Below, one piece after another: positions 8,786 to 64,000 of a stretch of 64,000 nucleotides of DNA. The notes under the pieces were generated by a model. The model worked only from the letters and a program-made list of their open reading frames with translations, was not told the origin of the DNA and did no database searches. The stretch spans positions 67,152-131,151 of the forward strand of contig CAVWAW010000019.1 of assembly GCA_963753035.1 (NCBI GenBank), given 5' to 3'. Numbering within the stretch: the first letter of the stretch is position 1; the number at the start of each line of letters is the position of its first letter. The DNA comes from an uncultured Acidobacteriota bacterium (lineage in GTDB: Bacteria; Acidobacteriota; Thermoanaerobaculia; Thermoanaerobaculales; Sulfomarinibacteraceae). The position numbers and the translations under genes are program-made.

Positions 8786-8950
8786 GGCGTCCCGCCCGCA
8801 GGATCGACTCCTGAATTGGCACCGGCCTTCTGCGCCGGGAGAGCAGACCGCATCGTGCCTCCCGAGGGAGCCCGGCAGCGCTATTGTGCGCAGGGCGTTG
8901 CGTCGCCGGGAGGTCGTTCCGGCACAATAGCGTGCCCGGCACCCCGATGT
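8786..8950 (+). repeat. S-family structured repeat, copy S4 (internal-deletion variant)
   Basis: Shares CACCGGCCTTCTG...CCGGGAGAGCAGACCGCATCG...GGGAGCCCGG...ATTGTGC...GGCACAAT...CCCGGCACCCC with 28631, 53290 and 36513 (rc). Lacks the H1/H2 hairpins, about 110 bp. Confidence 0.8.
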
Positions 8951-8998
8951 GGCGCGGTTTTCTTCGTGTCCTGGTGCGGTCTCGGATACGGATTCGGT

Positions 8999-18319: not shown

Positions 18320-18930
18320 GTCGTCGCAGGGTTGAACCGCCAAGACGCAAGAGTCGCAAAGCATCGCAGAAAACAACGCAGAGACGCAGAGGCGCAGAGA
18401 CGCAGAGGTCGGGTCCATCGGTGACGACGGTGTTTTCGTGTTCATCGTCGCCAGCCGGCCGGTCGGTTGCCCTCGTCCAAGGGCCGAGGACCCATGATTC
18501 GAGGTTTCCGAATCAGAAACGCGGCATTTCTGATTCGGAAACCTCGAATCATGGATCGCGCCTACGGCACGACCGCCCGGCCTCCGAGACGTGAATGGTG
18601 TCGTTTCGTCTCAGGGCATCCATTGAAGCCGATGGTGGACGGCCTACATATCTCAAGAATGTGGACAAGGAGCGAGACCCAGGTGGAGCCGACGCGCCGT
18701 AGGCGCGGCGTGCCTGTGAATTGTCTGGGCTGGACGAACGCTGGCGGGCGGATCGCCCAGACAATTCGCAGGTGGTGGCGGTCCGACCGACACCGACTCC
18801 ACCGCCATCATCGGCTGCGATGGATTGCGATGTCTCTGCGCCTCTGCGCCTCTGCGTTATTTATTGCGATGGCGCGACGTTGCGATGACCTCGCGTCCCT
18901 TGCGTCCTTGCGGTTCAAGAGTGATGTTCC
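18320..18930 (+). repeat. E600 element copy A: ORF-less, hairpin-rich element of about 600 bp with long inverted arms (MITE-like or ncRNA)
   Basis: Left arm GTTGAACCGCCAAGACGCAAG...(CGCAGAGR)x4 at 18331-18408. Mirrored right arm ending CTTGCGTCCTTGCGGTTCAAG at 18828-18919. Alignable by eye to 60792-61398 (rc) and 63509-end. Boundaries +/-15 bp. Confidence 0.8.
18493..18553. other. Perfect 27-bp stem / 7-nt loop hairpin (E600 H1)
   Basis: CATGATTCGAGGTTTCCGAATCAGAAA cgcggca TTTCTGATTCGGAAACCTCGAATCATG. Confidence 0.95.
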
Positions 18931-18942
18931 GCTTGGCTCCGG

Positions 18943-18986
18943 ACACAATAAGACCCGGACCTGCGGGGTTGCCGTTCTGGTCCGGG
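18943..18986 (-). terminator. Possible intrinsic terminator of rpmG
   Basis: On the minus strand: CCCGGACC, a 17-nt loop, GGTCCGGG, then TCTTATTGTGT. The loop is long and the U-tract interrupted. Confidence 0.3.
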
Positions 18987-19032
18987 CCTTGACGCCGGCG
19001 CAAGCGCCGGTTGGCGCCCTCCGCGACTGATG

Positions 19033-19194
19033 TCAGCGCGATTCTTTGAAGATCACGTGCTTGCGTACAACGGGATCGTACTTCTTGAGCTCAAGCCGGT
19101 CGGGGGTGTTCTGCTTGTTCTTCTTCACCGAGTACATGTAAGGGCTCTCGGTGCTCTTGAGCTTGACTGTGATGCGATGTCCTTTTTTTGCCAT
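19033..19194 (-). CDS. rpmG: 50S ribosomal protein L33
   Basis: Not in the ORF track (53 aa). Translates as MAKKGHRITVKLKSTESPYMYSVKKNKQNTPDRLELKKYDPVVRKHVIFKESR, with AGGAGG 8 nt upstream. Confidence 0.9.
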   Translation of the reverse strand: MAKKGHRITVKLKSTESPYMYSVKKNKQNTPDRLELKKYDPVVRKHVIFKESR

Positions 19195-28478: not shown

Positions 28479-28630
28479 TCGATTGTCTCCATGCTGAGAA
28501 ATTCCGCCTTGGCGGAGTGCGTATGGTACCGGATTCTCGGGAGCGTTGGCCACCCCCGCCGGCGCTTTGGGTGGTGTAGCGACAGCCATCCTGGCTGTCG
28601 ACGGTGACGTGCCAGCGCACTGTCGCCGTC

Positions 28631-28890
28631 CCGGAACCTGCGTTCATCCCCGGCCTTCTGGGCCGCTGTGACGTTGTCCCAGCCGACCAGCGTCGCGCCA
28701 TCGGCGTGGTCGCACGTCGGTTGATTTAGAGGGCTGCGACCACGCCGATGGCACGCCGGCGGCCTGCTTCGTAGCCGGGAGAGCAGACCGCATCGCGCTC
28801 CCCTAGGGAGCCCGGTTGGACATTGTGCGAGGAGCGCCGCGATGCCTGGAGGCCGATCCGGCACAATGTCGAACCCGGCACCCCGGTGGA
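28631..28890 (+). repeat. S-family structured repeat, copy S1 (about 260 bp, four hairpins)
   Basis: Near-identical blocks with 53290-53550 and rc of 36513-36780. A 17-bp stem 28697-28713/28736-28752 and a 10-bp stem GACATTGTGC/GCACAATGTC 28819-28828/28861-28870. Confidence 0.85.
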
Positions 28891-28979
28891 GCGGGATTCT
28901 CCGCGTGCCCTGGACGGCTCCGGGCGCTGCCACGGACCCGCATGGTAGACTCCGTCCGTTTCAGGAGGGTGTTGCACAG

Positions 28980-32995: not shown

Positions 32996-33120
32996 CTCCT
33001 GCGACGACTTCGTGCAACCTTCGTGGATTTGTGTCTTCGTGTTTGCGACGGTGTGATGTCTCTGTGATCCATTTGCGATGTCTGCGATGCTTTGCGTCCC
33101 TTGCGCCCTGGCGATTCAAC
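32996..33120. repeat. Solo E600-type arm (CGCA/GTG word array ending GGCGATTCAAC)
   Basis: GCGATGTCTGCGATGCTTTGCGTCCCTTGCGCCCTGGCGATTCAAC resembles the right arms at 18828-18919, 61300-61386 and 42770-42826. Confidence 0.6.
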
Positions 33121-36280: not shown

Positions 36281-36297
36281 GCCGCTCGGGCGCGAGG

Positions 36298-36359
36298 ACA
36301 TCGCAATCATCGCAATTCAACGCAGAGGCGCAAAGTCGCAGAGGCGCAGAGACATCGCA
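36298..36359. repeat. Solo E600-type arm (CATCGCA / CGCAGAGG words)
   Basis: ACATCGCAATCATCGCAATTCAACGCAGAGGCGCAAAGTCGCAGAGGCGCAGAGACATCGCA. Confidence 0.6.
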
Positions 36360-36462: not shown

Positions 36463-36512
36463 CTTCCGAGGGTACGAAAACGAGGGCGCGACTGGGCACG
36501 CGGACAACCGCG

Positions 36513-36780
36513 CCCCATCGGGCGTGCCGGGTTTGACATTGTGCCGGAACGACCACACGGCCCCGCGTCGCTCCCCGCACAATGTCATACCGGGCTCCCC
36601 CGGGGAGCGCGATGCGGTTTGCTGTTCCGGCTCCGAGGCAGGCCGCCGGCGTGCCATCGGCGTGGTCGCAGCCCTCACAATCAACCTACGCGCGACCACG
36701 CCGATGGTGCGACGCTGGGTCGCTGGGACGCCAAAGCGTCACAGCGGCCCAGAAGGCCGGTGACGAGATCAGCGTCCGGG
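36513..36780 (-). repeat. S-family structured repeat, copy S3 (inverted)
   Basis: The rc aligns block for block with S1 and S2, including the GCCATCGGCGTGGTCGC/GCGACCACGCCGATGGC stem and the GACATTGTGCCGG/CCGCACAATGTC stem. Confidence 0.85.
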
Positions 36781-36833
36781 GCAGCGTCAGGATCAACATC
36801 AGTTGACAGCCGGACGGGAGTGGGCGACTGTTC

Positions 36834-36926
36834 GCTGCCGCTGCCGCTGCCGCTGCCGCTGCCGCTGCCGCTGCCGCTGCCGCTGCCGCTGCCGCTGCCG
36901 CCGCTGCCGCCGCCGCTGCCGCTGCC
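36834..36926. repeat. Hexanucleotide microsatellite (GCTGCC)n
   Basis: About 11 perfect GCTGCC units, then degenerate GCC/GCTGCC units. Ends 8 nt from the stop of the 36934-38913 gene. Confidence 0.95.
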
Positions 36927-36933
36927 CCGGCCG

Positions 36934-38913
36934 TCAGTCGCGCTTCGGGGGGTACTCCAACCCGTACTCGGCGAGGATCGCCGCCGCGAGGTTTTTGAGC
37001 TCGGTGGCCTCTTTCTTCAGCGGCCTCGAGGTCAGGAGGATCCCCGGGACGCTTTCGTGATCCATGCAATGGTCACCGCTCCAACGGTCGGTGTTGTCGG
37101 TGAGGACCTGCGGAAGGATCTCGCCGATGGCCGACTCGTCAGATCCCCGGGTTCCCCTGGCGTAGCCGACCTGGATGTCGGGTCCGATGTGGAGATAGCC
37201 GCCGTCGGTGTAGGTCGCCTCGCGGAGATAGACCTTGGAGATCGCGGGTTTGCCGGTTGTGGGATCGATCACCCGACGGAGTTTGTCGGAAACCTCCGCA
37301 AGGAGGCGATCCCGATCTTTAGGATCGACGATGCCGCCCTTTTCCCGACCGCTGAGATTGAGATAGAGGCCGTTGATGCCGAGGCCATAGGCGCGGGTCT
37401 TGGACCAGTCGACGTTTGAGTAGTACTCACCGGCTTTGTCGGGATCCTTGAGTGAAAGGTAACCGTTCTCCTTGAGCCAGGTGTTGAGGTGGAACGCGCG
37501 CCGCCATGGTGAGAATCCGTGATCGGACATCACCACCAGGAGGGTGTCTTCGGGCATGTGCTCCAGGGTGTAGCCCACAACCTTGTCCATCTTCTCGTAG
37601 AGTTCGGGCATAACCCCCGCGTACTTGGGATCTATTTCGGGGTCGTAGGCCGGGTGGTCGGGGTCCATGGCCCGCCAGATGATGTGCCCGACCAGGTCGG
37701 TGTTGCCGAAATAGTGGAAGAGCAGACCCTCGTCGAACTCATCGAGGACGAACTTGAATTGTTCAATGTTCTCATCGCCGGCGATCTTTGCCTGGGCGAG
37801 GAACTCATCGACTGTCAGGACCCCTGCCTTGGCCGCCCCGGTGTCCTCCGGCATGCCCTGGGTGAAGAAATAGCCCGTGCACTTGCACAAATGCTTGGCA
37901 TAGGAGTTCGGGGTCGAGATCGGCATGATCGGGGCCGTCGGGTCGATGTTGAGCGGTGAAACATAGAGTTCGAAGTGGGGTTTCACCGCACGCAAATAGA
38001 AACGGGCGATGGCCGGGAGCGCCTGGGTCGGGATCAGTTCGAAGGAAACGGGGACCCACTCGCTCCAGCCTCCCGCCTCGAGAATGAACGCCTCGTCCCC
38101 GATGACGAACTTCGCGGCGTTGGTCTGTTCATCGACATAGACCGTCATCTCTGCGGACACCCGGGTGGGCTTGAGGAGGAACGGATTGTCGGGTCCGAGG
38201 AGCCTTGCGTCGATCCGCCCGTTCCTGGCTTCCACTTGAAAGACATCACCGCCGTTGACGCTCTCGGTGCCGGGAGCGAACGGGTCGGAGGTGTAGAGAG
38301 AAAAAGTCCCGTAGGTGCCCAGTACATCGGGCGTCCCCATCCCGCTCAATTCACGCCCGGCGGTGCCGGACGGGGGAAAATTCGCCGGCATTTTGATGAT
38401 GGTTGTCGGAACTCCGTGTTCTTCGAGAACCGTCCAGAACGAGTTTCCTTTCCGCAGGAGTTCGACCGAGCCGGGGTCGAAGAACGAAGGGATCTGCCAT
38501 TTCCCGAGACTCCACATGGTTCCCGGTCTGGCGATACTGGTCGACAGGTACGGCGTCATGGTTTTCGGGTCGCGGTGGATGAAATCAAAAATCCCGTGGC
38601 CTCCGGCATCGGTCCCGGAAATGAAGTCCGACCAGGCAACCGGGCTCTGAGGTGGGATGGAAGTGCCGAGGGAAGCAAACCCCCCTGAATCGGCTAGTTT
38701 CTTGAACGACGGCAACCGGCCCGCCTCGATCATCTTGGCCGTCAATTCATAGTCCATGCCGTCAAAGCCGAGGATGATCACATTCGGTTTGTCGCTGCCG
38801 CCGTTTTCGCCTTCAACTACATCGGCCTGGAGTGGAAGACCGACTCCGAGCGCGAGAATGGCGAGCAGTGCCAGTGACAACAGAGCGAGTGTCAGTTTCA
38901 AAGGGGTTCGCAT
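36934..38913 (-). CDS. Secreted alkaline-phosphatase-family protein (type I phosphodiesterase/nucleotide pyrophosphatase-like)
   Basis: Signal peptide. NVIILGFDGMDYE metal site. IPPQSPVAWSDFISGTDAGGHGIFDF nucleophile region. VVMSDHGF. Confidence 0.8.
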   Translation of the reverse strand: MRTPLKLTLALLSLALLAILALGVGLPLQADVVEGENGGSDKPNVIILGFDGMDYELTAKMIEAGRLPSFKKLADSGGFASLGTSIPPQSPVAWSDFISGTDAGGHGIFDFIHRDPKTMTPYLSTSIARPGTMWSLGKWQIPSFFDPGSVELLRKGNSFWTVLEEHGVPTTIIKMPANFPPSGTAGRELSGMGTPDVLGTYGTFSLYTSDPFAPGTESVNGGDVFQVEARNGRIDARLLGPDNPFLLKPTRVSAEMTVYVDEQTNAAKFVIGDEAFILEAGGWSEWVPVSFELIPTQALPAIARFYLRAVKPHFELYVSPLNIDPTAPIMPISTPNSYAKHLCKCTGYFFTQGMPEDTGAAKAGVLTVDEFLAQAKIAGDENIEQFKFVLDEFDEGLLFHYFGNTDLVGHIIWRAMDPDHPAYDPEIDPKYAGVMPELYEKMDKVVGYTLEHMPEDTLLVVMSDHGFSPWRRAFHLNTWLKENGYLSLKDPDKAGEYYSNVDWSKTRAYGLGINGLYLNLSGREKGGIVDPKDRDRLLAEVSDKLRRVIDPTTGKPAISKVYLREATYTDGGYLHIGPDIQVGYARGTRGSDESAIGEILPQVLTDNTDRWSGDHCMDHESVPGILLTSRPLKKEATELKNLAAAILAEYGLEYPPKRD

Positions 38914-42588: not shown

Positions 42589-42662
42589 GGGCGTCTCCTT
42601 TGTCTTCAAGATTCTCGCCCGGATCGGCGGAAAAGCAAACCTCGCCGGGCTCCATCGAGAGG

Positions 42663-42830
42663 ACCAGGATGAACCGCAAGGGCGCAATGGACACTAGGCA
42701 TCGCAACGTCGCAAACACGAAGACGCGAAGACGCGAAGATATCGCACACCAAGACATCGCGATCATTGGCTGCGATGTCTGCGATGTCTGCGATGCGTTG
42801 CGTCCCTTGCGTCCTTGCGGTTCAACTCTA
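42663..42830. repeat. Mini-E600: left and right arms abutted, with no internal region
   Basis: GAACCGCAAGGGCGCAATGG...(CGCGAAGA)x2... mirrored by ...GCGATGTCTGCGATGTCTGCGATGCGTTGCGTCCCTTGCGTCCTTGCGGTTCAAC. The right end is 1 nt from the TAG of the 42828 gene. Confidence 0.75.
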
Positions 42831-44117
42831 TGACGCGACCTCTCGACGCATCCCGGCCTGCTTTCGGCCGAGCCACAGGCCGACACCCATCCAGGCGCCG
42901 GCCAGGGGGATGGCGGCAAAGGCGATCCCGGTCATCCCGAGACCGAGCCAACCCATTGCGGCGTAGGACCAGGCGCCGACCTGGTCGCCGGCGCGGTAGA
43001 CAAAGGTGTCGATGAAGTTTTTCGCCTTGTACTTGGTCTCTCGTGGCAGCACGGTGTAGAGCATCTCGCGGCAGGGACGGGTGACGGCGTAGTTCGATGC
43101 CCGGCGGATGATCTGGAAGGCCGCAATGACACCCAGGGTCGGCGCCAAGCCGAGCCCGAAGAAACCGATGGCGCTGATCAGGGGCAGCCAGGCCAGGGCC
43201 ATGGCGATCCCGATGAATCGGACGATCCTGCCGGTGAGGAAGATCTGGGTGAGGATGGTGAGGATGTTGACGGCGAGATCGAGACGGGCGAAGAAAACGG
43301 TTCGCGACGCCCGGTCGGCGAAGACATCGGCGACGACTTCGGCCTGCTCGAAATAAAGGAAGGTCGAGGTAACGGTGTAGAACAGCATGTAGGCGACGAT
43401 GCCGAGCAGGTAGGGTGAGCGAAACACCGCGGCGATGCCCGCCATGACACCGCCGCCGATGATCTCGTCGTTCGGGTTTTCGGGGCCGGTCGGGTCGGGT
43501 GATGGATCGGGGCCGCCGCTGCGCAGCAGGATCAGCGCGATGACCACCGCGAGTTCGATGAAGGCGATTGAGACCAGGAGAAGAAATCGCGGTGGAATCT
43601 GCTGCGCCAGAGTGGCGGTGACAGCCGATCCCACGATGGCCCCCGCGGTGCCGCCGACCGCGATGAAGCCGAAGATGCGGGCTCCTTGTCCGGGTTTGAA
43701 GAGATCCGCCATGACCGACCAGAAGATGGAAACCACAAAGAGATTGAAGACCGAGGTCCAGATGTAGAAGACCCGGCCCACCCAGATGATCTTTGCTTCG
43801 GGCAATACGCTGAGTAGGAAAAGAAAAACGAGCATGCAGAGGGCGAAGAGGTTGTAGCTCAGCGGGATGAATCGGCGGCGGGGCAGGCGGGAGACCATGG
43901 CGGTGTAGATCGGGTGGGCCAGCAGCATCCCGACCAGCGTCCCGGTGAAGAGCCACGGCAGGTTGCGGACCCCGCCGGCAATCCCCATCTCGTCGCGCAG
44001 GGGTCGGATGATGAAGTAGCCGGCCATGATGAGGAAAAAGTAGAGGGCGGACAGCAGCATCGGGCGGGCTTCGTCCGCCTCGACCGAAACAACGCGTTGG
44101 AGTATTTTGTTCAGCAT
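42828..44117 (-). CDS. Multi-pass transporter, TLC (ATP/ADP translocase-like, COG3202) / MFS-type
   Basis: About 11-12 TM helices. The N-terminal LLSALYFFLIMAGYFIIRPLRDEMG resembles the TLC family signature (FxxILxNYxxLRxxKD). Confidence 0.6.
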   Translation of the reverse strand: MLNKILQRVVSVEADEARPMLLSALYFFLIMAGYFIIRPLRDEMGIAGGVRNLPWLFTGTLVGMLLAHPIYTAMVSRLPRRRFIPLSYNLFALCMLVFLFLLSVLPEAKIIWVGRVFYIWTSVFNLFVVSIFWSVMADLFKPGQGARIFGFIAVGGTAGAIVGSAVTATLAQQIPPRFLLLVSIAFIELAVVIALILLRSGGPDPSPDPTGPENPNDEIIGGGVMAGIAAVFRSPYLLGIVAYMLFYTVTSTFLYFEQAEVVADVFADRASRTVFFARLDLAVNILTILTQIFLTGRIVRFIGIAMALAWLPLISAIGFFGLGLAPTLGVIAAFQIIRRASNYAVTRPCREMLYTVLPRETKYKAKNFIDTFVYRAGDQVGAWSYAAMGWLGLGMTGIAFAAIPLAGAWMGVGLWLGRKQAGMRREVAS

Positions 44118-49216: not shown

Positions 49217-49294
49217 CCGGCCGACGGCCGGCTGGATCCAGCATCTTGCTCTCCTCTGTTTGCCCCTCCGCCCCCGTTGCGCTACCGTCTCACG

Positions 49295-50194
49295 ATGCCG
49301 ACTGACCTTCCCTCTGTCACCATCTACACCGACGGCGGTTGCCGTCCCAACCCGGGACCGGGTGGTTGGGGCGCCATCGTTCTCCGTCAAGGTTGCGATC
49401 CCATCGAAATGAACGGAGCGGACCCCAAGGCCACAAACAACCGGATGGAGCTCCAGGCCGCCATCGAGGCGCTGCGGTCGCTAGACGGGCCGCACCGAAT
49501 CGAGCTCATGACCGACTCGCAGTATGTCCGCAAGGGCGTCACCGAGTGGATGACCAAGTGGCGCGCCAAGGGGTGGAAAACCGCCGCCGGCAATGATGTC
49601 GCCAACCGCGACCTTTGGGAGGCGCTCAACGACGAGATCAAACGGCACAAGATCCTCTGGCGTTGGGTCCGTGGCCACACCGGCGACGAGTGGAACGAGC
49701 GCGCCGACGAGCTGGCATCGGCGGCGATTCCTCGCGCGCCGCTGCCGGTGGACGACCCCAAGGCGGTCCACCTTTTTACCGCCGTTGCCCACTCGGGGAA
49801 ACAGGACGCCGGAGCCTGGGCGGTGCTGATGCGTTTCCGCGGCGAAGAGCGTGAGCTCAGCGGGCGCCAGGCCGGGGCCTCGGCCAATCGGATGCACATC
49901 ACCGGCGCCGGGATGGGTCTTGCCGAGCTCAGTCGGCGGGTCAAGGTTCATCTCTACACCGCCTCGGACTATCTCAAGGACGGCGCGACAACCTGGATCA
50001 AGGGTTGGCAGGGGCGAAACTGGACGACCCGCGAGGGTAAGCCGGTCGCCAACCGAGAACTCTGGCAGCGGCTCGAGACCCTGCTGGGGCGGCACGATGT
50101 CCATTGGCACGTGGCTTCACGCGACAGCATGCCCGAGGAGATGGAGCGCGCCAAGGCGCTGGCGAAGGAGGCGCTCGCGAGGCGGGACGGGTGA
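49295..50194 (+). CDS. rnhA: Ribonuclease HI with a second, catalytically degenerate RNase H-like domain
   Basis: Domain 1 has YTDGG, NNRMEL, MTDSQY, GHTG and NERADELA. Domain 2 aligns but has FTAVAH, NRMHIT, YTASDY, VASRD and MERAKALA at those positions. Confidence 0.85.
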   Translation: MPTDLPSVTIYTDGGCRPNPGPGGWGAIVLRQGCDPIEMNGADPKATNNRMELQAAIEALRSLDGPHRIELMTDSQYVRKGVTEWMTKWRAKGWKTAAGNDVANRDLWEALNDEIKRHKILWRWVRGHTGDEWNERADELASAAIPRAPLPVDDPKAVHLFTAVAHSGKQDAGAWAVLMRFRGEERELSGRQAGASANRMHITGAGMGLAELSRRVKVHLYTASDYLKDGATTWIKGWQGRNWTTREGKPVANRELWQRLETLLGRHDVHWHVASRDSMPEEMERAKALAKEALARRDG

Positions 50195-53289: not shown

Positions 53290-53550
53290 ACGGAACCTGC
53301 CCTCATCGCCGGCCTTCTGGACCGCTGGGACGTTGTCCCAGCGGTCCAGCGTCGTGCCATCGGCGTGGTCGCTCGTGGGTTGATTGTGAGGGCTGCGACC
53401 ACGCCGATGGCACGCCGGCGGCCTGCCTCGTTGCCGGGAGAGCAGACCGCATCGCGCTCCCCGCGGGAGCCCGGTTAGAGATTGTGCGGGGAGCGCCGCG
53501 AAGCCTGGAGGTCGATCCGGCACAATGTCAAACCCGGCACGCCCGGTGGA
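53290..53550 (+). repeat. S-family structured repeat, copy S2
   Basis: Perfect 13-bp hairpin 53319-53347 (GGACCGCTGGGAC gtt GTCCCAGCGGTCC) and a 20-bp stem 53353-53372/53395-53414. Blocks shared with S1, S3 and S4. Confidence 0.85.
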
Positions 53551-53590
53551 GGCGCGGTCCGCGGGTTCTGTAGAGGTCGTGGGTACGGTC

Positions 53591-58118: not shown

Positions 58119-59533
58119 CCGTGCTCGCCGGAGATCGAATTCGCCGGGTCGAGGGATGGGGAATGGCCGTCGGTGCGGCCGGGTATCTCTATCAGCCGCG
58201 CAGCCTTCAGGATATCTCTGGTGTCATGGATACCGCTCGATCGACGGGCGTTCCCATCGTCGCCCGTGGATCCGGCTGCAGCTATGGCGACGCAGCCATC
58301 CTTCCCGAAGGCGTGGTTCTCGATTTCTCCAAGATGCGTCAGCTGCTGGCCTGGGATCCCGCGACGGGGATCATCGATGTCGAACCGGGCGTGACGGTGA
58401 GGCAACTCTGGCGCCACACCCTCGCCGACGGCTGGTGGCCGCCCATCGTCACCGGAACCATGGAACCGACCCTCGGTGGATGTCTGGCCATGAATGTCCA
58501 CGGCAAGAACAACTGGGTCCGCGGCACAATGGGTGACCACTGTCTCGAGCTCGATCTGTTGACGCCTGAGGGGGGGCTTCAGACCATCAGCCGGCACGAT
58601 GACCCCGAGCTCTTCCGCGCGGTCATCGGAGGCTTCGGTCAGCTCGGTCTGATCACCCGCGCTCGAATTCAGCTCAAACGCGTGCGCTCGGGCCTCACCG
58701 AGGCCGAGGCCGTGGCCGCACCCGATCTCGGCAGCCTGCTTCAGCGCCTCGATGACGCCAAGGACGACTGGGAGTACGTTGTCGGGTGGCTCGACGCCTT
58801 TCCGGGGGGCAAGAAGCTCGGACGTGGCCTGCTCCACTTCGCTCGGCACCTGAATGCAGACGAGGACCCCGATCCTCAGACCAGCCTCGACCCCACCAAA
58901 CAGGATCTCCCGTCGACGCTATTTGGGGTCATCCCCAAGTCGATGATGTGGCGGATGGTGAAGCCGTTCACCAACAATCTCGGGATGCGTGCGATCAACC
59001 TCGCAAAGTACCTTCAAGGATCGGTGCTTGCCGATGGTGCGGTCTACCGCCAGTCTCTGGCGGCGTTTTCGTTCCTCCTTGACTACATCCCCAACTGGAA
59101 GAACGCGTACCTCCCGGGCGGGTTGATTCAACACCAGAGTTTTGTCCCGGTCGCCGCAGCGGAGCGGGTATTCAGCCGACAGTTGGAGATCTGCAGGCGA
59201 TGGGGGATGCCCTCGTACCTCGGGGTGCTCAAGCGGCACCGGCCCGACGACTTCCTTCTCACCCACGCGGTGGATGGATTCTCGCTGGCCCTTGATTTTC
59301 CGGTCATCGAAAGCCGAAGATCCGAGCTCTGGGCCATGATCCGAGAGATCGCCGAACCGGTCGTGGCCGCCGGCGGCCGGTTCTACCCCGCCAAGGACGC
59401 AGCCTTGCCCGGAGAACTCTACCGGGCGACCTTTCACGATGGTCAACTCGAGGATTTTGCCGATCTCAAACAGCGAGTGGATCCGGATGGAGTCCTCCGA
59501 TCGGCGCTCGCTGACCGGCTCCTGGAGCGCTGA
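58115..59533 (+). CDS. FAD-binding oxidoreductase, DprE1-like
   Basis: The N-terminus VEGWGM...ARGSGCSYGDAAILPEGVVLDF parallels DprE1 LTGWGR...ARGLGRSYGDNAQ..GLVIDM. The GTG start overlaps the upstream stop (GTGA). Confidence 0.75.
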   Translation: MTVLAGDRIRRVEGWGMAVGAAGYLYQPRSLQDISGVMDTARSTGVPIVARGSGCSYGDAAILPEGVVLDFSKMRQLLAWDPATGIIDVEPGVTVRQLWRHTLADGWWPPIVTGTMEPTLGGCLAMNVHGKNNWVRGTMGDHCLELDLLTPEGGLQTISRHDDPELFRAVIGGFGQLGLITRARIQLKRVRSGLTEAEAVAAPDLGSLLQRLDDAKDDWEYVVGWLDAFPGGKKLGRGLLHFARHLNADEDPDPQTSLDPTKQDLPSTLFGVIPKSMMWRMVKPFTNNLGMRAINLAKYLQGSVLADGAVYRQSLAAFSFLLDYIPNWKNAYLPGGLIQHQSFVPVAAAERVFSRQLEICRRWGMPSYLGVLKRHRPDDFLLTHAVDGFSLALDFPVIESRRSELWAMIREIAEPVVAAGGRFYPAKDAALPGELYRATFHDGQLEDFADLKQRVDPDGVLRSALADRLLER

Positions 59534-59543
59534 GGTGGGGAGG

Positions 59544-60791
59544 ATGAGAACAGCGATCGTTGCGGCGATCGGGGCGCTCCTCGTCGGTCCGGCGACGCCG
59601 TTCGCGAAATCCGACACCGATCGGCTGCACTACTTCGCGGTCAACGGCAGCGGTGTTCTGAGCTCGGCCAAGGCCGATCTGCCGGTGAACCCGGCGTCGG
59701 TGGTCAAAATCGCAACGACGTTGTGGGCCCTCGCTGAACTCGAGGCCGGTCATCGCTTCACCACCTCGATCGGGTATCTCGGAAGCTGGGACCCATCCTC
59801 GGGCGTTTTGGTCGGCGATCTTGTGATCCGCGGAGGGGACGACCCGGATTTCCAGTGGGAAAACGCCTTCCTCGTGGCGCGTGAGCTCAACCGGCTCGGC
59901 CTGCGCCGAGTGGAGGGCCGGGTTCTGGTTCAGGGACGATTCTGGCTTGGCTGGGAGCACGGGGTGGAAAAACGGGTGACCGATCCGACCCAATTGGCTG
60001 AGAAGATGGGCCGCAGGCTCATCGGCACCCTGGATCCGGTCAGGTGGACCCGCTCCCAGCTCAATACCTGGAAGGCGCTGTGCGAGCGGCGTGGTTGGGA
60101 CATCACGCGCAGGCCGCAGGTGAAAGTCACCGGAGGGGCGCGTTTTGACACGCTGCGCGACGCAACGCCGATGCTCGTCCACCGCTCGAACCCACTCGAA
60201 GTCATCATGCGGCGCTTCAACGTCTACTCCAACAACGACATCGTCCGAGTGGCGGACGGGATCGGCACGCTGGACGAGTTCGAGGCCTTCGTCACCCGGC
60301 GTCTCGGTGTCGAACCGGGTCGGATCGAGCTCGAGACGGCGTCGGGTGAGCGCCGCAACCGGATGACCGTGCAGCAGATGGCGGGTCTTCTGACCGAGCT
60401 CGATATCGAGGCCGAAGAACAGGGGCTCGAGGTCCAGAAGTTGCTGCCCGTTCTCGGCTGCGACCCCGGCCACACAAGACGGATGTTTCCCGCTTTGGCC
60501 GAGCCCGAGTTCGCGGGGGCGGTGACCTGCAAGACGGGGACCTTGACCCATACCGATGGCGGGGTGGCGGTCCTGGCGGGGATCTTCACCAGTCCGACCA
60601 ACGGACCGGTGGTCTTCGCCATCGCCGCGCCCGGGGCCGGCGGTAAGCTCGACTACTGGCGGATGATCCAACAGCGGTGGATCCTCGACCTCATCGCCGA
60701 GTCGGGCGGGGCGGTGACGACACCCTGCGGCGATCCGCTGCCGTTCTCCGACACCTTCGCCGAGATCGAGGTCGTCGCCGGCGGAGAATAA
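59544..60791 (+). CDS. dacB: D-alanyl-D-alanine carboxypeptidase/endopeptidase, PBP4 (S13) family
   Basis: SxxK (PASVVK), SxN (YSNND) and KTG (CKTGTL) motifs, plus GDLVIRGGDDPDF. Trimmed to the Met at 59544. Confidence 0.85.
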   Translation: MRTAIVAAIGALLVGPATPFAKSDTDRLHYFAVNGSGVLSSAKADLPVNPASVVKIATTLWALAELEAGHRFTTSIGYLGSWDPSSGVLVGDLVIRGGDDPDFQWENAFLVARELNRLGLRRVEGRVLVQGRFWLGWEHGVEKRVTDPTQLAEKMGRRLIGTLDPVRWTRSQLNTWKALCERRGWDITRRPQVKVTGGARFDTLRDATPMLVHRSNPLEVIMRRFNVYSNNDIVRVADGIGTLDEFEAFVTRRLGVEPGRIELETASGERRNRMTVQQMAGLLTELDIEAEEQGLEVQKLLPVLGCDPGHTRRMFPALAEPEFAGAVTCKTGTLTHTDGGVAVLAGIFTSPTNGPVVFAIAAPGAGGKLDYWRMIQQRWILDLIAESGGAVTTPCGDPLPFSDTFAEIEVVAGGE

Positions 60792-61398
60792 CGCAGAGCC
60801 GCAGAGGCGCAGAGACATCGCACATCGCAGTTTCACCGCAAAGACGCCAGGAACGCCAAGACCATCGCAACCGATGATCGCGGTGGAGTCGGTGTCGGTC
60901 GGACCGCCACCACTGCTGCTTCATGTGCTCGCATCGAACGCGGCGTTCGTGACGAGCACATGAAGCAGCAGCTCGCCGCGCCTACGGCGCGCCGGCTCCG
61001 CCTGGGTTTCGCTCTCCATCAACTCTATCCAAATGAGGGACCTCGATCTGGAGGAGATCCAATACCCAAGAAGCTGTGGAGGCAGGATGGTCGTGCTGAA
61101 AGCACGATCCGAGACTCGTGAGATCAGATTCCGAAACGCCGCGCTTCGGAATCTGATCTCACGGGTCTTGGGTCCTCGGCCCCGGGACGAGGGCCACCGT
61201 CCGGCCGGTTGACGATCACGAACACGGTTTGGCCGAGGTCGGTACCGGGCCCGATCCGTGTTCATCCACCGAATCAGTGACCATCCGTGTCCCATTGCGA
61301 TGATGCGATGTCTCTGCGTCTCCGCGTCTCTGCGTCTCTGCGTTGAACTGCGATGTCTTGGCGATCTTGGCGTCGTTGCGGTTCAACCCGTGATGTGA
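60792..61398 (-). repeat. E600 element copy B (inverted relative to copy A)
   Basis: Begins right after the dacB stop with CGCAGAGCCGCAGAGGCGCAGAGACATCGCA. The right arm ends GTTGCGGTTCAAC at 61386. Hairpins at 60913-60971 (19-bp stem) and 61113-61167 (23-bp stem). Confidence 0.8.
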
Positions 61399-61408
61399 CG
61401 GCGCTGAG

Positions 61409-62425
61409 CTATGCCACGCACCAGAAGGTATTGCCTTCGTCGAGGTCGAGTTCGACCAGCCGCGTTCTGATAAGGTTCCTCGCTCCCCGTGACGCCACCG
61501 CCGCGATGACGACGGTGTCGCCGTCGAGATGCGCGGGGAGATCATCGGGCGAGATCACGTTGATCCTCCGCAGGGTGCCGCCGATTTTTCTCGGGTCGAT
61601 GTCCACGACTGCGGCGATCTCGACACCCTCCTCCATGAGAAATTTGGACAGCCTCCGGCCGGTCTGGCCGGCGCCCCAGAGAATGACCTTTGAGAAAGAA
61701 GCCAAGGGACCGCGGGCGAGAAAATGAGCTTTGCAGCGCAGGAAGCTCGGCACCGAGTAGCGGGTGTCGGTGCGGGTGAGTCGATCGTCGTGCTCCCGCC
61801 AGAAGAAGAGCGGACGATCGATCTTTTCGAAGATCACACCGGCCGCGAAACAACGCAGCCAGAGGTCGTAGTCTTCGGCCCATCCCGGATCACGCCAACC
61901 ACCGATCTCGGTGAGGACCTCGCGGCGAACCATCACCGACGGGTGGGCGACGGGTGATTCGATGAACCGCTCGCGTTTGATCTCGTCATGGGTCACGAGC
62001 GAATTCAACCATTCCTCGTAGAGGCGGAAGCCCATGGCCACGCAGCGCGACGGAAAATGGCGCACCAGGCAGGACACGACTCCGACCTCGGGCTGGTCGG
62101 CGAAACGGGCGGCCTGGAGTTCGAGCCGTTTCGGATGGCTGATGTCATCGGCGTCCATCCTCGCCACCAGCGGCGCCCGGCAGTGTTCGAAACCGCGATT
62201 GAGAGCGGCGACCAGCCCCTCGGCCGGTTGGTGAACCACGGTAAAACGTGGGTCCCGATCCGCCCAGGTATCGAGGAGAGCCCCGCTGTCATCGTCGGAT
62301 CCGTCGTCCACGGCGATGACCTCGAAGTCGGTCAGCGACTGGTGGGCCAGGCTGGCGAGACCGGCCTCGAGCCACCGGCCGCCGTTGCGAACCGGGAGGA
62401 GCACGGAAACCATCGGGGTAGTCAT
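61409..62425 (-). CDS. Family 2 glycosyltransferase with a C-terminal Rossmann-like domain
   Basis: VSVLLPVRNG, VIAVDDGSDD and the DxD motif in RMDADDIS. The C-terminus has VILWGAGQTGRRL. Trimmed to the Met at 62425. Confidence 0.8.
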   Translation of the reverse strand: MTTPMVSVLLPVRNGGRWLEAGLASLAHQSLTDFEVIAVDDGSDDDSGALLDTWADRDPRFTVVHQPAEGLVAALNRGFEHCRAPLVARMDADDISHPKRLELQAARFADQPEVGVVSCLVRHFPSRCVAMGFRLYEEWLNSLVTHDEIKRERFIESPVAHPSVMVRREVLTEIGGWRDPGWAEDYDLWLRCFAAGVIFEKIDRPLFFWREHDDRLTRTDTRYSVPSFLRCKAHFLARGPLASFSKVILWGAGQTGRRLSKFLMEEGVEIAAVVDIDPRKIGGTLRRINVISPDDLPAHLDGDTVVIAAVASRGARNLIRTRLVELDLDEGNTFWCVA

Positions 62426-62466
62426 GGCGCACCGACTATAGCGCCGGCCCGCGCAACTGTGGTTCA

Positions 62467-63507
62467 ATGGCCCGCCGAACAATGCTGTATCCACTTTCCC
62501 GCGCCGCCCTCTTCAAGCTCGAGCCCGAGACCGCCCACGCCGTATCTCTCGCCGCCATCGCCAAAGCGGGAGCCGTGCCTCCCGTGCGGGCAGCACTTGC
62601 CGCGTGTTTCTGTGTGCCCGATGCCGAACCGGTCGAGGCCTTCGGGTTGACCTTTCCAAACCGGGTCGGGCTTGCCGCCGGTTATGACAAGGATGGCGAA
62701 GGATGGCGTGGTCTGGCCACCCTGGGCTTCGGCCACGTCGAAGTTGGGACGGTGACTCCGCTGCCACAGCCGGGAAACCCGAAACCGCGGGTCTTCCGTT
62801 TGGTCGACCGGCGGTCGGTGATCAACAGAATGGGATTCCCGGGACGCGGCGCGGCCTATGTCGCCGATCAGCTTCGCAAACCCGGTCCGCCCGGGCTGAT
62901 TCTCGGGGTCAACATCGGCAAACAAAAGGACACCGCCCTCGAGGATGCGGCGGGCGACTACGAAGAACTCATGGAGGTCTTCGCCCCGTTGGCCGATTAC
63001 CTCGCCGTCAACATCTCGTCGCCCAATACCCCCGGGCTGAGGCAGCTCCAGGAACGGTCGTTCCTCGGCGCGCTGCTCGGTCGACTCGCCGCCAAACAGG
63101 CTTTGCTGGCGGATGGGACCGGAAAACGGGTGCCGGTACTGGTCAAACTCGCGCCCGATCTCGATCCCGACCAGCTCCGGACGGCTGTCGACTGCGTGGT
63201 CGAATCGGGGCTCGACGGGATCATCGCCACCAACACGACGATCTCGAGAGACGGTGTCGATGGGCATCCTCTATCCTTCGAGGAGGGTGGGCTCAGTGGT
63301 GCGACCCTCACCGAGATGAGCACCCGGATCATCGCCGCCATCGCCGAGCACCTCGACGGAGCACTGCCCATCATCGGTGTCGGGGGCATCATGTCTCCCG
63401 ATGACGCGCGCGCCAAGCTCGACGCCGGCGCCACCCTGTTGCAGGTCTACACCGGGATGATCTACGAGGGCCCCGGTCTGGTGAAGCGGATCCTCAAGGC
63501 GCTCTGA
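62467..63507 (+). CDS. pyrD: Dihydroorotate dehydrogenase (quinone), class 2
   Basis: FPNRVGLAAGYDKDG, NISSPNTPGLR, IIATNTT and GVGGI. The start could be the Met at 62482. Confidence 0.95.
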   Translation: MARRTMLYPLSRAALFKLEPETAHAVSLAAIAKAGAVPPVRAALAACFCVPDAEPVEAFGLTFPNRVGLAAGYDKDGEGWRGLATLGFGHVEVGTVTPLPQPGNPKPRVFRLVDRRSVINRMGFPGRGAAYVADQLRKPGPPGLILGVNIGKQKDTALEDAAGDYEELMEVFAPLADYLAVNISSPNTPGLRQLQERSFLGALLGRLAAKQALLADGTGKRVPVLVKLAPDLDPDQLRTAVDCVVESGLDGIIATNTTISRDGVDGHPLSFEEGGLSGATLTEMSTRIIAAIAEHLDGALPIIGVGGIMSPDDARAKLDAGATLLQVYTGMIYEGPGLVKRILKAL

Positions 63508-63508
63508 A

Positions 63509-64000
63509 TCCATCGCAGGGTCGAACCGCAAATACGCGAAGTTCGCAAAGCATCGCTGCGTCGCACCATCGCAAAGATCTAACGCAGAGACGCAGAGACG
63601 CAGAGACATCGCACCATCGCAATGGGACACGGATCGACACGGATGTGGCGGATCGGCACGGATCGGGCCCAGTTCCAATCTCGGCTAACTCGGTCTCGGG
63701 GTCGTCAACCGGCCGGACGGTTGCCCTCGTCCAAGGGCCGAGGACCCATGACCCGTGAGATCCGATTTCCAAACGCGGCGCTTGAAAATCGGATCTCACG
63801 GGTCATGGATCGTACCTACGGCACGACCGTCCGGCCTCCAGAGATTGAGGGGGCAGGTCCGACGCTGCCAGAAATCTGTCGCCCCGTCAGAGAATTTGGG
63901 ATGGGTTCAATAGTACTTTTCGCCTACCTCAGCGTCAGCCCTATTCGATCGGGAGTCGAACCCCAGTACAGATAGAGCGCCTTGCCCGAAATCAACTCGG
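63509..64000 (+). repeat. E600 element copy C (same orientation as A; truncated by the window edge)
   Basis: Left arm GGTCGAACCGCAAATACGCGAAG...(CGCAGAGA)x3 follows the pyrD stop. The hairpin at 63747-63807 has a stem of about 26 bp. Flanking blocks are shared with copies A and B. Confidence 0.8.

Follow-up and report, generated by a model that had tools for sequence, protein, structure and literature searches.

E600, an undescribed dispersed repeat family of Thermoanaerobaculales-like Acidobacteriota with a core of two mirrored four-way junctions

The BIMEs of Escherichia coli and the BOX elements of the pneumococcus are modular intergenic repeats without an open reading frame (ORF), in which the number and order of the modules vary and the outer modules are complementary. 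The ends of IS200/IS605 elements and the attC sites of integrons keep their structure while their sequence is free, and the choice of strand is set by positions outside Watson-Crick pairing; both hairpins of IS608 lie on one strand, attC cassette arrays run in one orientation, and both adjoin their recombinase. RNAs of the OLE, GOLLD, HEARO and ROOL type are single-orientation genes, not palindromic repeats scattered over a genome. A stretch of 64,000 nucleotides from an uncultured Acidobacteriota bacterium of the Sulfomarinibacteraceae (GenBank assembly GCA_963753035.1, contig CAVWAW010000019.1, positions 67,152 to 131,151 of the forward strand; hereafter the window) was subjected to computational analysis, and a single non-coding element at window positions 18320-18928, named E600, is described here as copy A of a repeat. 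It consists of inverted arms of CGCA-containing words around a hairpin-dense core, and E600 is an undescribed dispersed non-coding repeat family in Thermoanaerobaculales-like Acidobacteriota. The core is made of two homologous, inverted, strand-specific four-way junctions (units D1 and D2, joined by a linker) under strong structural constraint, and the mosaic arms are not under selection to pair with each other.

E600 is modular, intergenic and without an ORF, as are the BIMEs and BOX elements, but it has no sequence relation to them, is 3-5 times larger and has a covarying branched core; to our knowledge, neither has been described as having a core with strand-specific mirror symmetry. Its units keep their structure while the sequence varies, like IS200/IS605 ends and attC, but in contrast to the single hairpins of IS608 and attC they are branched, occupy opposite strands and lack an enzyme in their vicinity. 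Non-coding character, strong covariation and multi-stem junctions are shared with OLE, GOLLD, HEARO, ROOL and the Acido-1 and Acido-Lenti-1 motifs, from which E600 differs in matching no Rfam model.

REP sequences are palindromes of 20-40 bp with a GTAG or CGTC tag at the foot, outside the stem, and in Acidobacteria TIRYT genes are flanked by long families of terminal inverted repeats (TIRs) (Di Nocera et al. 2013, PMC3733652). As with REPs and REPINs and their RAYT proteins (Y1 HUH transposases), E600 is intergenic, high-copy, non-coding and dispensable, and seemingly placed mostly at the 3' ends of genes. It also resembles REPINs in being an inverted doublet of a structured unit, so that the units are read on opposite strands, REP units being recognised as a folded single strand. 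Unlike the short tagged hairpins of REPs, the units of E600 are branched and without a conserved tag, are separated by a linker of 80-100 nt and are accompanied by word arrays of 100-250 bp, and no RAYT or TIRYT gene was seen in the window. Long, internally repetitive TIRs are carried by the foldback transposons, such as Drosophila FB and Galileo (PMC3573991, PMC4079207), and the arms resemble those of E600: they are inverted and built of sub-repeats, differ in length between copies and ends, and undergo rapid structural turnover. Unlike E600, these transposons are eukaryotic, of kilobase scale, tied to P-superfamily or other transposases and without a conserved structured core, and the likeness is one of architecture only. 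E600 works most like REPINs and mosaic repeats, and in appearance comes closest to foldback-type elements; it has neither sequence nor unit size nor a diagnostic tag in common with any of them.

The structure of the core was determined from 26 distinct sequences of D1 and 36 of D2, with RNAalifold and by counting pairs explicitly. Each unit forms a four-way junction, at which a closing stem meets three hairpins: a short one, a long one and a third. On the minus strand, D1 has 54 pairs with 97.6% of cells paired and compensatory changes at 21 pairs, and D2, read on the plus strand, has 48 pairs, 97.9% paired, with changes on both sides at 23. For both units, none of 500 column shuffles reached the observed value on any of five measures, and pairing fell to 31-53% when partners were slid by 1-3 columns as a control. 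In copy A the units fold far better than shuffled sequence (z = -5.7 and -10.8; 0 of 200 shuffles as good), and the fold energy of D1 is -97.1 kcal/mol on the minus strand versus -83.0 kcal/mol on the plus strand. A preliminary description of the element, made from the letters of the window without database searches, had listed several hairpins in the interior, which is not a loose set but resolves into these two homologous units on opposite strands.

Covariation is found mostly within the long hairpins, and that of D2 occurs in at least 7 fully compensated sequence types. The closing stem and the third hairpin are mostly invariant, so their pairing rests more on conservation than on covariation. 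A GNA triloop (GUA, GCA, GGA or GAA) caps the short hairpin, and the pair closing it covaries between C:G and U:A (11 of 26 in D1), and a CGYGCC-GUA-GGCRCG hairpin is common to D1 and D2. Most terminal loops are triloops (GNA, CCG, CUU), amounting to four of the six in each element, and no GNRA or UNCG tetraloop is present. A G·U pair at the base of the D2 long hairpin is conserved in 35 of 36 copies.

Strand preference was assessed with one fixed pair set per unit, derived on the favoured strand, for which G·U outnumbers A·C by 117:8 in D1 on the minus strand and by 88:7 in D2 on the plus strand (about 14:1 overall), with G·U at 46 pair positions and A·C at 10. Consensus energies on the favoured versus the opposite strand are -92 versus -45 kcal/mol for D1 and -84 versus -78 kcal/mol for D2, the gap in D2 being small; the opposite-strand fold of D1 still has A·C above G·U (23 versus 6). 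On the basis of the G·U excess and the consensus energies, each unit is constrained on the strand that runs 5' to 3' from the centre of the element to the nearer end. A covariance model built from D2 alone matched the three D1 units of the window over its full length on the opposite strand, with 60.0, 56.2 and 43.3 bits (E 2e-12 to 2e-8), the same-strand matches being weaker (40.7, 32.6 and 32.1 bits). Together with the shared hairpin, these matches indicate that the element is an inverted duplication of one half-unit, the halves of which have since diverged.

Copy A shares the 770-bp space between the HD-GYP and rpmG genes with the rpmG terminator hairpin, and is laid out as follows.

18263 (start codon), minus strand: HD-GYP gene
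18320-18408, plus strand: left arm, with terminal words GTCGTCGCAG and GGTTGAACCGCC, which recur in other copies, then CGCAAG/CGCAAAG/CATCGCAG, then four tandem CGCAGAGR 8-mers
18409-18456, plus strand: inner left spacer, homologous by alignment to the GATCGGGCCCAGTGCCGACSTCGGC...GTCGTCAA block elsewhere in the family
18416-18432: small hairpin within the inner left spacer
18457-18582, minus strand: unit D1, four-way junction
18582-18572/18467-18457, minus strand: closing stem of D1
18571-18557, minus strand: short hairpin of D1, GUA triloop
18554-18492, minus strand: long variable hairpin of D1
18491-18469, minus strand: conserved hairpin of D1 (GGGUCCUCGGCCCUUGGACGAGGGC, counterpart of the invariant hairpin of D2)
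18583-18681, unstranded: linker between D1 and D2, with conserved blocks GGTGTCGTT and CTCAAGAATG...GAGCGARAC
18682-18803, plus strand: unit D2, four-way junction
18682-18688/18797-18803, plus strand: closing stem of D2
18690-18710, plus strand: short hairpin of D2, GUA triloop
18712-18773, plus strand: long variable hairpin of D2
18774-18794, plus strand: invariant hairpin of D2 (GGUGGCGGUCCGACCGACACC)
18804-18928, plus strand: right arm, opening with the junction GCCATCATCGGC, with words TGCGATG, CTCTGCG and CTTGCG, and ending in GCGGTTCAAG and AGTGATGTT
19033-19194, minus strand: rpmG (L33)

A repeat search recovered all of the arms, CGCA words and hairpins of the preliminary description in their places. 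The inverted arm blocks 18332-18357/18893-18918, 18362-18401/18832-18871 and 18384-18407/18834-18857 are 85%, 90% and 96% complementary, and the tandem 8-nt CGCAGAGR occupies 18377-18408. The long hairpin was found at 18489-18522/18524-18557 (34-nt arms, 94%), the second at 18713-18730/18755-18772 (18-nt arms) and a GC mini-hairpin at 18694-18708. The linker is more AT-rich than the units, its GC content being 0.54 in copy A and 0.45-0.60 across the family versus 0.62-0.71 in the units. A 187-aa TTG-initiated ORF on the plus strand (18467-19030) traverses copy A and the rpmG terminator; it is not conserved among copies because indels, the lengths of which are not multiples of three, disrupt the frame, and it exemplifies the long spurious ORFs that such repeats create and that can mislead annotation.

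Other copies in the window were located by BLAST of the element against the window and by direct reading, giving three copies and three remnants in 64 kb. Three core motifs each recur 2-3 times in the window, versus 0 expected by chance.

60787-61396, minus strand: copy B, complete and in opposite orientation (D1 ~61206-61082, D2 61005-60878)
63510-~63850, plus strand: copy C, truncated, with left arm (including ACACGGAT words), D1 (~63711-63836) and linker
42660-42835, unstranded: arm-only derivative, the arms meeting at GCGATCATTGGC, identical to the junction after D2 in full copies
33040-33120, plus strand: right-arm remnant upstream of a class I aminoacyl-tRNA synthetase gene (33078)
36288-36359, plus strand: isolated CATCGCA/CGCAGAG word block, adjoining a copy of a second hairpin repeat family

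The architecture had been thought to recur twice more in this window, which holds for copy B and only in part for copy C, where the left arm, the first unit and the linker are present. The right arm of copy B has undergone rearrangement, words of terminal type standing within its CTCTGCG words, and the copy is wedged between convergent genes for an S13 peptidase (59439-60791, plus strand) and a GT2 protein (61409-62494, minus strand), whose stop codons abut it. Copy C begins 3 nt past the pyrD stop codon and ends before a tRNA-like fragment. In that fragment (~63945-64000, minus strand), GGGGTTCGACTCCC and its flanks resemble part of a tRNA gene (T-arm and 3' half) that is interrupted by the end of the window and that ARAGORN cannot call. 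Because its centre holds the exact post-D2 junction, the arm-only element at 42660 is a deletion product and not an empty target.

That E600 is an ORF-less dispersed repeat with long inverted arms, as first proposed, was borne out well outside the window. An exact scan with the first-unit motif found 8 copies in three uncultured Acidobacteriota metagenome-assembled genomes, and a scan of metagenome contigs with the second-unit motif gave 40 matches on 38 contigs, of which 2 contigs were chance matches, leaving 38 true matches on 36 contigs; copies beyond the window total 47. The names carried by homologues of the HD-GYP protein beside copy A indicate Thermoanaerobaculales. BLAST against plasmid and phage collections gave no match to the element, and neither did four scans of viral contigs with both unit motifs and two long-stem sequences. 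The long stems had been considered as spacer-like copies of phage DNA, an idea rejected as the two long-stem sequences were unmatched in viral contigs. Full-text literature searches returned nothing relevant on the element sequences or on repeats in Thermoanaerobaculia.

In the orientation of copy A, the order throughout the family is left arm, conserved spacer (GATCGGGCCC...GTCGTCAA), D1, linker, D2, GCGATCATCGGY and right arm. The units span 125-145 nt, D1 being invariant in length (143 nt including flanks) and D2 measuring about 125 nt, and the linker, of the length given above in most copies, reaches up to 340 nt where other repeats are inserted. The termini common to the copies are GGTTGAACCGC... 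and ...GCGGTTCAAS. The arms carry GGTTGAACCGC and CGCAAGG words at the tips, together with CGCAGAGR, CATCGCA, ACACGGAT, CGCAGAT and CGCGAAG words, the kind, order and number of which vary between copies and between the two arms of one copy; their period is mainly 8, and on the outward strand A is scarce (13%) and T frequent (31%), C and G being nearly equal. Among the metagenome copies, many derive by deletion, having kept D2 and lost D1. In several metagenome copies the linker is lengthened to 260-340 nt by an insertion, within or beside it, of another repeat that has GCTCAGRATGACAG...TGTCATTCC units and GGGGGATYCTTCGACTC blocks. Related loci are numbered with the prefix L here and below.

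L012, ~250-560: other repeat at the linker
L015, ~330-740: other repeat at the linker
L023 (minus orientation), upstream of match 2636-2657: other repeat at the linker
L011, 9355-9610: other repeat at the linker

The arms were described from the outset as inverted complements of each other. They are indeed 85-96% similar in blocks, but alignment of the left arm with the reverse complement of the right arm in 21 copies (1449 matches, 148 transversions, 136 transitions and 182 gap positions) shows no constraint to pair, and the transitions split 73/63 over the two possible G·U strands, that is, without strand bias. A giant arm-to-arm stem as a functional structure was thus rejected, the mismatches being mostly transversions and gaps. 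A C-rich tail of the Rho-utilisation type was likewise rejected, since on the outward strand of the arms T is abundant and A scarce, and C and G are about equally frequent. The proposal of one large structured non-coding RNA gene is unsupported because the arms show no pairing selection and the units lie on opposite strands, the selected structure being two separate units.

The history of individual copies was followed at orthologous sites. The same insertion with the same junctions is present in several lineages between the rpmG terminator and a conserved CGATTCTGTATCATG box upstream of HD-GYP.

Window (reference): element intact
L029, flanking gene ~75% identical in nucleotides: intact
L036, neighbouring ValRS-like protein 97% identical: D1 lost, word blocks duplicated, terminus lost
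L046, HD-GYP 93% identical in amino acids: two internal deletions, one at a GATTC microhomology
L049-51, HD-GYP 91% identical in amino acids: D2 mostly deleted

At the synthetase site (33078), L028 (95% identical in amino acids) has a full element and the window only an arm, with the same junction GGTTCAAC|TTCGCT. The orthologous slots compared hold either the same insertion or other repeats, with no clean empty site and no recent insertion among them, only losses; no target-site duplication is readable because a clean empty site is lacking. Individual copies are old, vertically inherited and erodible.

Outside the long stems, the copies of the window and L029 are identical at 70/72 positions of D1 and 65/66 of D2 (97-98%), 21 of the D2 positions being fixed by the search pattern, while the long stems are identical at only 28/48 positions in D1 and 16/36 in D2 and yet remain paired, and the flanking gene is ~75% identical. 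When all copies are compared in pairs, identity averages 0.60-0.79 within the long stems and 0.89-0.94 outside them, and the unpaired junction nucleotides are more conserved than the stems. This pattern can be read in two ways, as in-situ purifying selection on a functional fold or as concerted evolution among copies. Long-stem types are common to non-orthologous loci. In the D1 long hairpin of L049 (1215-1290, equal to L050 365-440), one arm is like the stem type of the window and the other like the commonest type, with several mismatches, which suggests that recombination or conversion had a breakpoint at the tip of the hairpin. The sharing of stem types and this apparently chimeric hairpin argue for sequence exchange between copies.

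The slot next to HD-GYP also holds other material in relatives. In L047, L052/54 and L055 it contains short unrelated word palindromes (GTGAGRA/TYCTCAC, GCTRATRGC or CACGGAT words), and the gap between HD-GYP and TetR, empty in the window, is filled in relatives by palindromes of GTGAAGG/CCTTCAC type starting at the stop codon. The word palindromes seen in relatives comprise GTGAAGG/CCTTCAC, GTGAGRA/TYCTCAC, CTCACGA and (CTCCTCA)n, the last up to 8 times, and often start at the upstream stop codon.

L046, 5230-5390: word palindrome
L047, 5230-5500 and 3855-3965: word palindromes
L052/L053, 2730-3040: word palindrome
L055, 1345-1440 and 2730-2800: word palindromes

As they occupy the same slots, word palindromes are a general intergenic feature of the lineage and not specific to E600.

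The genes beside the copies have no common function (L33, TopA, aminoacyl-tRNA synthetases, glycogen phosphorylase, HlyD-type, TPR, peptidase, GT2, pyrD), and clustering of all ORFs near copies returned only spurious in-repeat ORFs and orthologous housekeeping genes. The absence of a transposase or reverse transcriptase nearby, noted from the start, was confirmed: the 34 long codon-biased ORFs of the window have only housekeeping-type Pfam matches or none, and no transposase, reverse transcriptase or integrase was found among them or beside any copy. By a rough codon-bias heuristic, the D2 side is faced by gene ends more than by gene starts (15 versus 5). A sigma-70 promoter and terminator scan of copy A gave no promoter, no outward terminator and one weak terminator-like site at chance level, and inspection of the linkers by eye revealed no conserved -10/-35 pair.

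Membership in known families was tested. Rfam 15 gave 0 matches at gathering thresholds over the whole window, in agreement with the initial view that this is not a described RNA family. At E<=10, the three copies matched only sub-threshold models of miRNA precursors, which are taken as generic long hairpins because the models change from copy to copy. ARAGORN reported no tRNA or tmRNA, and a tRNA-like cloverleaf was rejected, as the junction departs from it in arm lengths and in spacers. A retron msr-msd was rejected because the genes beside the copies are HD-GYP, L33, S13 peptidase, GT2 and pyrD, with no reverse transcriptase downstream. A REP or REPIN was rejected since the units are 125-145 nt long and branched and GTAG lies in the loop; the GTAG of the short hairpin belongs to a GNA triloop and is not a REP tag, because the loop varies and its closing pair covaries. 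Of the marks of a generic structured RNA gene, compensatory changes and strand-specific G·U are seen, while copy A showed no promoter or terminator consensus. Features of two further types are present: foldback-type architecture (long TIRs of tandem sub-repeats, variable between copies and ends) and miniature inverted-repeat transposable elements (MITEs). A MITE-like transposon had been the other initial proposal; the terminal inverted repeats, the absence of an ORF and the many copies agree with it, but ~600 bp is large for a bacterial MITE, copy A is old and vertically inherited, and no longer, transposase-bearing autonomous copy with the same arms was found in the 64-kb window and ~330 kb of related loci, so a MITE is not demonstrated. 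Both initial proposals, MITE-like transposon and large RNA gene, survive in modified form only.

Tentatively, and with not quite an even chance, we interpret E600 as a dispersed repeat of foldback/mosaic type whose folded single strands are recognised by a trans-acting protein that propagates or homogenises the element. The folded single strands of both halves would be the recognition sites of this protein, presumably encoded elsewhere, which may copy, move or homogenise E600 much as RAYTs act on REPs and REPINs, TnpA on IS200/IS605 ends and integrases on attC. The word arrays would be prone to slippage, and so to expansion, contraction and loss, and individual copies would be dispensable and would erode through microhomology deletions. 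The junction, the GNA-triloop hairpin and the third hairpin are held nearly constant in sequence, whereas the long hairpin needs only to stay paired. The trans-acting protein is favoured because copies are dispensable, stem types are shared between loci, the doublet is inverted and minimal triloops are typical of DNA palindromes. Several results weigh against it. Passive selfish copies should not keep the identity seen outside the long stems of the window and L029 copies, at ~75% in the flanking gene, unless gene conversion is frequent, and functional structured RNAs classically show such a pattern; conserved G·U pairs, such as the one at the foot of the D2 long hairpin, are likewise more typically seen in RNA than in DNA. 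The lack of a transposase, reverse transcriptase or integrase in the places searched and of a longer autonomous copy counts in the same direction, as does the record of the compared sites, with losses only and no target-site duplication, precise empty site or recent insertion. Almost as likely is a reading in which the two units are functional RNAs and the element spreads secondarily. The RNAs would arise by divergent transcription outward from the AT-richer linker, or by read-through from a gene facing the element, the distal unit then always being sense-oriented, and could, for example, protect or process the 3' ends of convergent transcripts, offer a scaffold to which proteins bind, or form a new class of ribozyme. 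The near-invariant junction and short hairpins speak for RNA, beside long stems that evolve about neutrally yet stay paired (58% and 44% identity in D1 and D2 between the window and L029), as do the tolerance of G·U and not A·C on one strand per unit, the conservation of some G·U pairs, the AT-richer linker, the excess of gene ends at the D2 side and the abutment of copies B and C on stop codons. However, copy A has no sigma-70-like promoter or outward terminator and the linkers no conserved -10/-35 pair, close relatives lose or gut copies without replacement, the terminal loops are largely triloops and never GNRA or UNCG, and a catalytic core is made less likely by the internal loop of the long hairpin, which is not conserved from one stem type to the next.

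A function of single strands would be dispensed with altogether if E600 were a slippage-made intergenic palindrome kept symmetrical by arm-to-arm conversion or template switching, perhaps with a role as double-stranded DNA (an array that binds protein, a cruciform or a barrier like a terminator, for instance). The hairpins have minimal loops and are nearly perfect palindromes across their centres, the words of the arrays repeat with a period of 8 in variable copy number, and unrelated word palindromes occupy the same and neighbouring slots in relatives, some of them from the stop codon. A symmetrical DNA process, however, predicts G·T equal to A·C, in place of the ~14:1 ratio with a favoured strand that switches between the halves; the unpaired junction nucleotides are more conserved than the stems; and the core is homologous across dozens of loci and therefore not generated in situ. 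We regard this explanation as improbable. Least probable by far, and close to dismissed, is a described class, be it a REP or REPIN with RAYT, a retron msr-msd, an ORF-less group II intron, a known self-cleaving ribozyme or a tRNA-like element. The inverted doublet does resemble REPINs, GTAG is present in the short hairpin of both units, long variable stems with a terminal closing stem recall retron RNAs, and a length of ~600 nt recalls ORF-less group II introns; nevertheless E600 failed every membership test run, with no match in Rfam 15 or by ARAGORN and a GTAG that is not a REP tag, and has no adjacent reverse transcriptase or Y1 transposase. Turning from the whole element to its halves, there is a real chance, though well below even, that each half represents a new class of four-way-junction nucleic-acid module, so that one element gives structured products of both polarities. 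Such a module might take the form of a divergent structured RNA pair, possibly a protein-binding or catalytic class with a 20-30 bp stem that is free to vary, or possibly of folded 3'-running DNA strands of a new single-strand-dependent mobile element. A second repeat family with apparently the same junction topology hints at a wider superfamily in the lineage.

Should the units act as RNA, they would constitute a new large covarying architecture, each element having ~100 supported base pairs, in an uncultured lineage that is widespread, and the mirror layout would give a structured product whichever the direction of transcription. Should they act as single-stranded DNA, they would point to an unrecognised mobilisation or homogenisation system with branched recognition sites. 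E600 and related word palindromes fill many intergenic regions of these genomes, and given their rapid change between close relatives they could serve as strain markers; they are also substrates for recombination.

The second dispersed repeat is ~290 bp long, unrelated to E600 in sequence, and composed of two long-hairpin units, for example CGGGCGTGCCGGGTTTGACATTGTGCCGG/CCCGCACAATGTCATACCGGGC and CGGCGTGCCATCGGCGTGGTCGC/GCGACCACGCCGATGGTGCGACG.

Window, 36495-36790, plus strand: second repeat
Window, 53291-53558, minus strand: second repeat
Window, 28620-28910, minus strand: second repeat
Window, 8823-8984, minus strand: second repeat, partial
L028, 85-372: second repeat
L011, 4-203 and 4320-4525: second repeat
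L041, 4030-4260: second repeat
L046, 8057-8266: second repeat

The D2 covariance model aligns over its full length to one unit of this repeat with the same four-way topology (27.9 bits), which suggests a wider group of junction-type repeats in the lineage. The copy at 36.5 kb adjoins the CGCA-word block listed above. At 36830-36925, about 15 tandem GCTGCC hexamers lie just downstream of the stop of a minus-strand gene (36934-38913). Elsewhere in the window, a 305-aa protein (49277-50194, plus strand) has two stretches matching RNase H (PF00075, 224 bits) and is an apparent tandem-domain RNase HI.

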